Source: a virus
Lineage: Duplodnaviria > Heunggongvirae > Uroviricota > Caudoviricetes
Strand: one strand, 5' to 3'
DNA length: 38,067 nucleotides
Virus record (IMG/VR): IMGVR_UViG_2541047915_000012
Below are positions 33,124 through 33,594 of the stretch, in pieces. Below the pieces are notes generated by a model that was given only the letters and a program-made list of their open reading frames with translations, had not been told where the DNA came from and searched no databases. The number at the start of each line of letters is the position of its first letter. Position 1 is the first letter of the stretch. The position numbers and the translations under genes were made by a program.

Positions 33124-33594
33124 ATGACAAAATCATGGAGCGTACCTTTTCCTGAATCAGAAACTGAACATGATGGAATGCCTGTTTTCTGGAGATTCCA
33201 AGCGACAGTTGAAGAAGATGGAATCAAAATATTCGCACTTCAATATATAGCTTTTCATCAGACAGAGCATTATGCATGGTTGGTTCCTGCGCATTGGATT
33301 GTTAATTTTAAACCAGCACCAAATCAGTGGTTACAGGAATGGAAACAAAGGAGAAATAGATATGCAATTAAGAAAGTAGCAAAAAATGCAGAAAGATCTT
33401 TTGCATTCCCGACGAAGAAACTTGCCATTGAAAGTTTATTGCGCCGGAAGAAATACCATTTGATGAGAATCAAACAAGATTTGGCTGTTGTATCAACTCT
33501 TGTTGATGGGATGAAGAATATTGATACATCAACACCAGGTATTGAATATAACTTTGGACACAACCAAGAAACAGAAAACTGGGTGTTTTATTAG
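33124..33594 (+). CDS. Hypothetical protein, AT-rich accessory gene in the pL operon
   Basis: 156 aa, ATG with GAGGTG RBS 11 nt after the original N stop; visibly AT-rich relative to neighbours; no recognisable motif. Confidence 0.5.
   Translation: MTKSWSVPFPESETEHDGMPVFWRFQATVEEDGIKIFALQYIAFHQTEHYAWLVPAHWIVNFKPAPNQWLQEWKQRRNRYAIKKVAKNAERSFAFPTKKLAIESLLRRKKYHLMRIKQDLAVVSTLVDGMKNIDTSTPGIEYNFGHNQETENWVFY

Follow-up and report, generated by a model that had tools for sequence, protein, structure and literature searches.

An HK97 gp45/933W L0079-family gene as interchangeable cargo behind N in an ISEc52-interrupted, CUS-3-like prophage

Lambdoid phages carry different genes in the stretch of their early-left (pL) operon that lies between the antiterminator gene N and the terminator tL2a. 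Phages 21 and CUS-3 hold orf28-ral there, lambda holds an open reading frame (ORF) annotated SieB together with orf28-ral, and phage 434 holds a Nun-C-terminal-peptide protein (for lambda and 434, the alignment covered the right flank of the interval), while HK97 and the Shiga-toxin (Stx) phages hold gp45. Among these genes, ral encodes a protein that modulates type I restriction-modification. Here we describe a gene at positions 33124-33594 (+ strand) of a 38,067-nucleotide stretch of viral DNA (IMG/VR record IMGVR_UViG_2541047915_000012; hereafter the window). Judged by its sequence, this gene is an intact copy of the HK97 gp45/933W L0079 family (PHROG 1636), and it is interchangeable cargo of an early-left slot with conserved flanks, which the present prophage shares with HK97 and the Stx phages. 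A first-pass annotation of the window had placed the gene where lambdoid phages hold host-modulating or exclusion genes, and the cargoes of lambda, 21, CUS-3 and 434 listed above agree with that placement.

We found a close match to an existing family over the whole length of the protein. The ORF starts with an ATG at 33124, with no in-frame start further upstream, and encodes 156 aa on the + strand, exactly as first annotated. Residues 1-156 matched positions 1-156 of the 156-position PHROG 1636 profile (E 1.1e-111), and by tblastn the protein is 98.7% identical to HK97 gp45 (NP_037731) and 99.4% identical to both 933W L0079 (AAD25424) and Phi24B vb_24B_11c. The gene also occurs in H-19B and BP-4795, with identities within this range of 98.7-99.4%, and Stx2 phage 86 likewise carries it. 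At the DNA level, the ORF is 100% identical to the copy in the prophage of E. coli (Escherichia coli) ATCC 11775, and 598 of the 5,426 complete E. coli genomes (11%) carry the gene in up to four copies per genome, always annotated as hypothetical. The gene was thus on record before, under the names HK97 gp45 and 933W L0079, and its sequence in the window adds nothing new; the first-pass annotation, which treated it simply as a gene of unknown function, had overlooked this family. Because the chance of a 156-codon open frame at the base composition of the gene is ~4e-6, and because comparison with its homologues gives a ratio of nonsynonymous to synonymous substitution (dN/dS) of 0.03-0.17, synonymous sites being saturated from one genus to another, the ORF is a real gene under purifying selection.

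The remaining properties that had been ascribed to the gene were largely borne out. It was said to have a strong ribosome-binding site of its own, and we read from the sequence a Shine-Dalgarno site, GAGGTGAT (33114-33121, +), which overlaps the original stop codon of N, offers 8 nt of complementarity to the anti-Shine-Dalgarno sequence, places its GAGG core at the canonical distance of 6 nt from the ATG, and is kept in all phages compared. It was also said to be more AT-rich than its neighbours, and its GC content is indeed 36.7% (29% at third codon positions) versus 47.6% in the window as a whole, 48.7% in N and 45.8% in erf. Low GC is found across the family, with homologous genes at 36-45% versus 44-49% for their own loci, in other genera too; AT-richness is a trait of the whole family and not peculiar to the present copy. 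The encoded protein (18.6 kDa) is soluble and basic, with an isoelectric point of 9.3, rich in tryptophan (7 Trp) and free of cysteine. As had been stated, it is not hydrophobic: its grand average of hydropathy (GRAVY) is -0.57 and its highest 19-residue Kyte-Doolittle mean is 0.56, and by this hydropathy measure it contains no transmembrane segment.

The slot is defined by what surrounds the cargo. On its left side, a 58-nt leader upstream of the start codon (33059-33123, plus the ATG) is almost identical in phage 21, CUS-3, HK97, 933W and 683R2, encoding the end of N in phages with a 21-type N and being non-coding in HK97 and 933W, so that this flank carries both the ribosome-binding site and the start codon of whatever follows. 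The leader, ribosome-binding site and ATG are common to phages whose N genes are unrelated. On the right side, a flank of ~115 nt, consisting of a stable hairpin plus tL2a, is common to lambda (after ral), 21, 434, HK97, 933W and the window. The hairpin (33607-33640, +) is very stable, with a stem of ~14 bp and no U tract (-21.7 kcal/mol, z score -7.4), and it is nearly identical in lambda, 21, 434, HK97 and 933W whatever cargo precedes it; a role in RNA processing or stability is conceivable, as is one as a recombination anchor, and no Rfam match was found in 30900-34400, the hairpin included. Behind it, a terminator scan located an intrinsic terminator homologous to lambda tL2a (33699-33724, +; GCCCTC-CAGTGT-GAGGGC followed by T6), the corresponding sequence being annotated tL2a in phage O276 and "terminator" in 434, 21 and HK97, and then a second, weaker terminator-like hairpin (33737-33756, +) that HK97 also has. 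The next gene of the operon, in the position of cIII, is a small ORF of 56 aa (33789-33959, +; a RefSeq coding sequence in ATCC 11775) without a Pfam match, and homologous DNA is annotated CIII in Salmonella phage SPN9CC. Between these flanks the cargo changes: from the identical ATG, phages 21 and CUS-3 open a very acidic 28-codon ORF (MEEEFEEFEEHPQDVMEQYQDYPYDYDY; locus L026, 3162-3248) that overlaps the start of ral. This small ORF, unannotated in the phage 21 and CUS-3 records, corresponds to lambda orf28. As CUS-3 itself has ral, the present prophage differs from CUS-3 exactly at the slot between N and tL2a.

In the window, N and the gene no longer adjoin. An ISEc52 element (IS3 family; 1,250 bp; 31806-33055, +, with orfA and orfB oriented as pL), recognised by its imperfect terminal inverted repeats, its target duplication and the RefSeq name in a relative, is flanked by 3-bp ATG duplications at 31803-31805 and 33056-33058. 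It has truncated N, an antiterminator of the phage-21/CUS-3 type (31563-31808, +; PHROG 271 match at 5e-24 and alignment with the N proteins of phage 21, CUS-3 and ATCC 11775), to 81 aa, the new stop codon TGA being the first three bases of the insertion sequence (IS; 31806-31808). The insertion costs N its last 18 residues, GVTCVGRQKMKLGSKPLI, with which the N proteins of phage 21 and CUS-3 natively end. The severed 3' part of N, 18 codons followed by the TGA, now lies at 33059-33115 (+), where it doubles as the conserved left flank of the cargo slot. Upon excising the IS and one duplicate in silico, we recovered an N of 99 aa that is identical to WP_000219332 from the IS-free prophage of ATCC 11775. 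The ancestral stop codon (33113-33115) stands 8 nt ahead of the ATG of the gene, as in the IS-free relatives ATCC 11775 and phage 683R2, while the gap is 58 nt in HK97 and 933W. The description of the gene as lying directly after N thus holds for the IS-free relatives and fails in the window itself, where the 1,250-bp element intervenes.

ISEc52 is present in the window as three identical 1,250-bp copies, at 23797-25046, 28338-29587 and 31806-33055. The first is flanked by an ATA target duplication and the third by the ATG duplication described above, whereas no target duplication surrounds the second, which directly adjoins a truncated replication gene, a situation that suggests IS-mediated deletion or recombination. 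As the three copies are identical, the insertions are recent. The junction between the IS and the gene is absent from all 5,426 complete E. coli genomes. The prophage in the window is probably defective. The right end of the IS next to the gene contains an outward-facing TTGACC (33043-33048); as a hybrid promoter this was rejected, there being no acceptable -10 element 16-18 nt downstream (TTGTGT or TGTGTT) and no such promoter in the scan.

Scans for promoters and terminators place the gene in the first pL transcript of its IS-free relatives. The only + strand sigma-70-like site between cI and the gene is a pL-like promoter, TTGACC-17-TAAATT (31134-31162), downstream of the cI terminator (31040-31059), and the IS-free ATCC 11775 prophage has it too. 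Downstream of this promoter and 56 nt upstream of N, we recognised by pattern alone a candidate nutL (31479-31507, +), in which a boxA-like TGCTCTTTC is followed by a boxB-like hairpin, GCCCCTC-AGTTC-GAGGGGC, with a 7-bp stem and a 5-nt loop; the RNA folds at -18.9 kcal/mol (z score -3.3). The arginine-rich motif of N, NARNRRRARRQAQ, differs from that of phage 21. In the window, the ATCC 11775 prophage, HK97 and 933W alike, a consensus scan found no sigma-70-like promoter between pL and the gene, and no terminator-like site between pL, N and the gene, the first ones coming after the gene; the depositors of HK97 likewise annotated a terminator after gp45. Because promoter-like and terminator-like sites are lacking between pL, N and the gene, the gene would be co-transcribed with N in the first pL transcript of the IS-free relatives, before antitermination is needed, and would be silent in the repressed prophage. 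In the window it would be expressible only through read-through across the IS, and the scan found no terminator-like site between the transposase genes and the ORF. With its AT-rich composition (36.7% versus 47.6% GC in the window) the gene resembles a moron; a promoter and terminator of its own were not found by the consensus scan, the terminator downstream being the shared tL2a of the operon.

Members of the family occur only in phages and prophages, and each genomic context that we inspected was a phage or prophage early region. Closer homologues, at 55-84% identity, were found only in Enterobacterales (Pectobacterium, Brenneria, Cronobacter, Rosenbergiella and one Salmonella phage), and 40 columns are invariant across them. 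An exhaustive profile search retrieved 87 representatives, of which ~70 are proteins of 130-160 aa at 18-26% identity, all belonging to PHROGs 1636, 13631, 25384 or 28215. One further apparent match, P0056 (940 aa, with seven apparent copies of the N-terminal region), is a DUF7507/DUF11 repeat protein, and its similarity is most likely compositional. The homologue is the first gene behind a promoter match of 10/12 in Salmonella phage NX263, comes after an N-peptide gene in diverged Cronobacter and metagenomic prophages, and in phages of Pantoea, Klebsiella and Vibrio belongs to an array of small early genes. Three unrelated phages or prophages have a DNA methyltransferase gene (L013, 3374-5305; L014, 4068-4982; L019, 2465-3181) two to four genes upstream from a distant family member, a weak hint of an anti-restriction neighbourhood.

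Remote-homology and structure searches, which the first-pass annotation had named among the checks to make, yielded no homology to any characterised early protein (Pfam, NCBIfam, PADLOC, PDB, PHROG and profile searches) and no solved structure matching the predicted fold. Searched with the single protein, Pfam, NCBIfam, PADLOC and the PDB sequences gave nothing beyond noise, in keeping with the statement that the protein has no recognised motif; we discarded as noise the matches to Tmem26, zf-H2C2, Cas1_II (PADLOC, E 0.018) and reticulocyte-binding protein. When 69 relatives were scanned against Pfam and PADLOC, and the PDB sequences were searched with a profile, the outcome was again noise only (coiled-coil-type singletons, twinfilin and IF1), PADLOC giving just two singleton matches with E above 1e-3 among the relatives. 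Borne out, too, was the suggestion that the gene is an accessory candidate: it is cargo, not a housekeeping gene.

Structure prediction nevertheless yielded a confident model. With a shallow alignment, AlphaFold2 gave a mean predicted local distance difference test (pLDDT) of 70; with 69 diverse relatives, this became 93.5, with a predicted template-modelling score (pTM) of 0.80. The model contains a long three-stranded beta-sheet (strands 19-30, 33-46 and 50-55), two short helices (56-61 and 66-74), a fourth strand (83-86), a 33-residue helix (98-130) and an ordered C-terminal tail; it is a confidently predicted fold without a solved relative. Conservation across the wide family falls on G33, an E/Q46-T47 pair, K87, A101 and a motif K...RFA..TK..A...L..RK that sits within a basic segment (residues 74-120, 16 K/R). 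K87 is nearly invariant across the wide family, and R79, K84, R91, R107, K109 and R115 are invariant within the Enterobacterales group.

We propose that the protein would act on behalf of the phage at an early stage of infection, countering host defence or helping to take over the host and standing in functionally for Ral, and that it would bind nucleic acid, or a host factor handling nucleic acid, through the Lys/Arg-rich segment 74-120. The nucleic-acid part of the proposal is suggested by this central segment being both basic and conserved. A role other than protecting the lysogen is favoured because the family is confined to phages, stands in early arrays, those of presumably virulent phages among them, shows neither a consensus promoter of its own nor a membrane segment, and is interchangeable with ral. 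Taken as a whole, with identity, anatomy and early function together, this explanation is tentative and falls somewhat short of an even chance. For the functional part, an early counter-defence or host-takeover protein that binds nucleic acid or a nucleic-acid-handling factor, we would speak of a possibility with roughly one chance in three. A bolder version, in which the gp45/L0079 family makes up a class of immediate-early counter-defence proteins (e.g., anti-restriction) that has so far escaped recognition, with a fold outside the PDB, interchangeable with Ral at a dedicated slot behind N, we consider doubtful, though not far-fetched.

Several observations weigh against the proposal. The slot shared with ral is positional evidence only, and a profile of the 69-sequence family showed no similarity to lambda Ral (hhalign probability 0.1%). 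A basic patch would suit many functions. Both scans, for promoters and for terminators, were based on consensus alone and are thus blind to weak or activator-dependent promoters and to Rho-dependent terminators. In Brenneria, Pectobacterium and marine prophages, the homologue lies distally in the early operon, beside xis-int and behind a terminator, and therefore it is not always made first. A literature search under the various names of the gene (HK97 gp45, 933W L0079 and others) found no relevant paper. And the present copy, sitting in a defective-looking prophage, may do nothing at all. For the Brenneria and Pectobacterium loci, the regulatory setting is unlike that of the E. coli phages: a strong intrinsic terminator lies ~28 nt before the start codon of the homologue (L007, 3953-3973; L008, 3952-3972), with a further terminator after it in L008 (4517-4537).

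Of the alternatives, the one that survives best concerns the present copy. It holds that the gene in the window is an inert passenger of a crippled prophage with a truncated N, intact only because little time has passed since the IS insertions. All three ISEc52 copies have the same sequence, one of them sits in N and another abuts the truncated replication gene, and the IS-gene junction occurs in none of the 5,426 complete genomes, all as this alternative would have it. Against these stand an intact ORF with 100% DNA identity to the ATCC 11775 copy, and the possibility of read-through, with no terminator-like site between the transposase genes and the ORF. We regard the inert-passenger alternative as unlikely, if the best of the rivals, and it is silent on the role of the family.

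Two further alternatives assign the protein a different role, and we hold each of them to be improbable. In one, it would assist or modulate N-dependent transcription or the handling of RNA, for instance through a Nus factor, Rho, RNA polymerase or the stability of N, or by binding to pL RNA. The recurrent adjacency to N speaks for such a role, yet the homologue also occurs in phages without N nearby, and a 21-type N works with ral in the slot. In the other, it would bind DNA and thereby regulate either the choice between lysis and lysogeny or integration and excision, much as small prolysogenic or antilysogenic genes in the exo-xis region do. Other early-left accessory genes are reported to bias the lysis-lysogeny decision (PMC7093339). 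The family is found mainly in the early-left operons of temperate phages, its conserved segment is basic, and the Brenneria, Pectobacterium and marine prophage homologue lies immediately upstream of xis/AlpA and int, although this position relative to xis-int is not conserved in the E. coli phages. No helix-turn-helix, ribbon-helix-helix or other recognised DNA-binding domain was found in the protein, however, and relatives occur in phages that we take to be virulent (Erwinia phage phiEa2809 and Achromobacter phage phiAxp-3).

Least probable of all, in our view, is a SieB-like superinfection exclusion or abortive-infection gene that protects the lysogen, since the ORF annotated SieB in the same region of lambda, the Nun-type exclusion functions carried there by HK022 and 434, the AT-richness shared with many morons and the cassette-like terminators on both sides in Brenneria/Pectobacterium are set against the lack of a promoter-like site for expression from the repressed prophage in the consensus scan of four genomes, of a transmembrane segment, of a PADLOC match for the protein or its 69 relatives and of similarity to the lambda ORF annotated SieB (hhalign probability 0.6%), and against structural relatives in the presumably virulent phiEa2809 and phiAxp-3, which have no lysogen to protect. 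The exclusion function that the first-pass annotation had entertained thus gained no positive evidence, and a lysogen-expressed exclusion protein is less likely than the early counter-defence or host-takeover protein that we favour.

The prophage that carries the gene is CUS-3-like, with an endosialidase tailspike and an immunity region 96.5% identical to that of CUS-3; in relatives, the integration site is torI/dsdC. In the tailspike (256-3201, -), a head-binding domain of the P22 type is combined with endosialidase catalytic domains and, at the C-terminus, a chaperone domain, and the prophage is therefore a K1-capsule-specific CUS-3-like podovirus. Beyond it, 3302-7087 forms an immI-like and accessory region that overlaps the other accessory cluster of the first-pass annotation (4952-7087). 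It comprises a P22-type antirepressor (3302-4270, -), an Arc-like ribbon-helix-helix protein (4662-4952, +), a ClpP-like protease (4952-5488, +), a YafO-family toxin (5537-5986, -) and two ORFs without a Pfam match (5995-6591, -; 6737-7087, +).

For the window itself, the gene is an ordinary one in a prophage damaged by ISEc52, and it would not surprise a specialist in lambdoid phages. It is worth recording as a real, conserved gene in a slot whose conserved flanks are shared with ral, with a confidently predicted fold that has no solved relative and with ISEc52 now separating it from a truncated N. The gene is common, strongly conserved, and has been "hypothetical" since the genomes of 933W, Phi24B, H-19B, BP-4795 and HK97 were deposited. 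Its probable place in the first, N-linked transcript, the ral slot and this predicted fold make it a cheap and well-defined target for knock-out and expression. A positive functional result would provide a new early effector for the biology of Shiga-toxin phages and a new phage counter-defence; if the bolder version were true, about one in nine sequenced E. coli strains, along with the major Shiga-toxin phages, would carry the counter-defence class.

Among known systems, a weak resemblance is to small Tudor/KOW/SH3-like beta-barrels (PipX, Spt5 KOW domains, MBT and chromo domains), which superpose weakly on the N-terminal beta-region; for PipX (3n5b_B), the root-mean-square deviation is 1.9 Å over 43 residues. 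The early proteins of PHROGs 13631, 25384 and 28215, including those of phiEa2809 (A0A0A0YXB3), phiAxp-3 and Pantoea phage LIET2 (gp069), share the predicted fold of the present protein (Foldseek E 2.5e-7 to 6e-4, template-modelling scores 0.44-0.65). Their profile relationship is detectable at 18-26% identity, and the motifs YR...G..I...ET and K...RFA..TK..A...L..RK are common to them and the present protein. Missing from them are the N-terminal 18 residues and most of the YNFGHNxETxxWxF tail with which proteins of the Enterobacterales group end, and their genes do not adjoin an N gene.

Alike in position are the other cargoes. The lambda ORF annotated SieB (NC_001416), HK022 Nun and the "Nun C-terminal peptide-containing protein" of 434 are all, like the present gene, carried just downstream of N or nun, but the present protein has no hydrophobic segment and its gene no detectable promoter of its own, and profile comparison found no homology to the 434 slot protein. 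Ral of lambda, 21 and CUS-3 occupies the same slot, in 21 and CUS-3 even from the same ATG behind the same 58-nt leader, and the ral cargo of phage 21 and lambda ends at the same hairpin-plus-tL2a flank; both ral and the present gene are early pL genes and non-essential accessory cargo, though Ral has 66 aa with cysteines and the present protein 156 aa with none. Closest of all is the HK97 gp45/933W/Phi24B family, which shares with the present gene the leader, ribosome-binding site and start codon on the upstream side and the tL2a region on the downstream side, with one residue changed, G138 here in place of D. The N gene ahead is of the phage-21/CUS-3 type here and of the H-19B/HK97 type in the HK97-group phages, and the order pL, N, gene, tL2a, cIII/ea10 is the same in HK97, 933W, 683R2 and the ATCC 11775 prophage, and is interrupted here by ISEc52.
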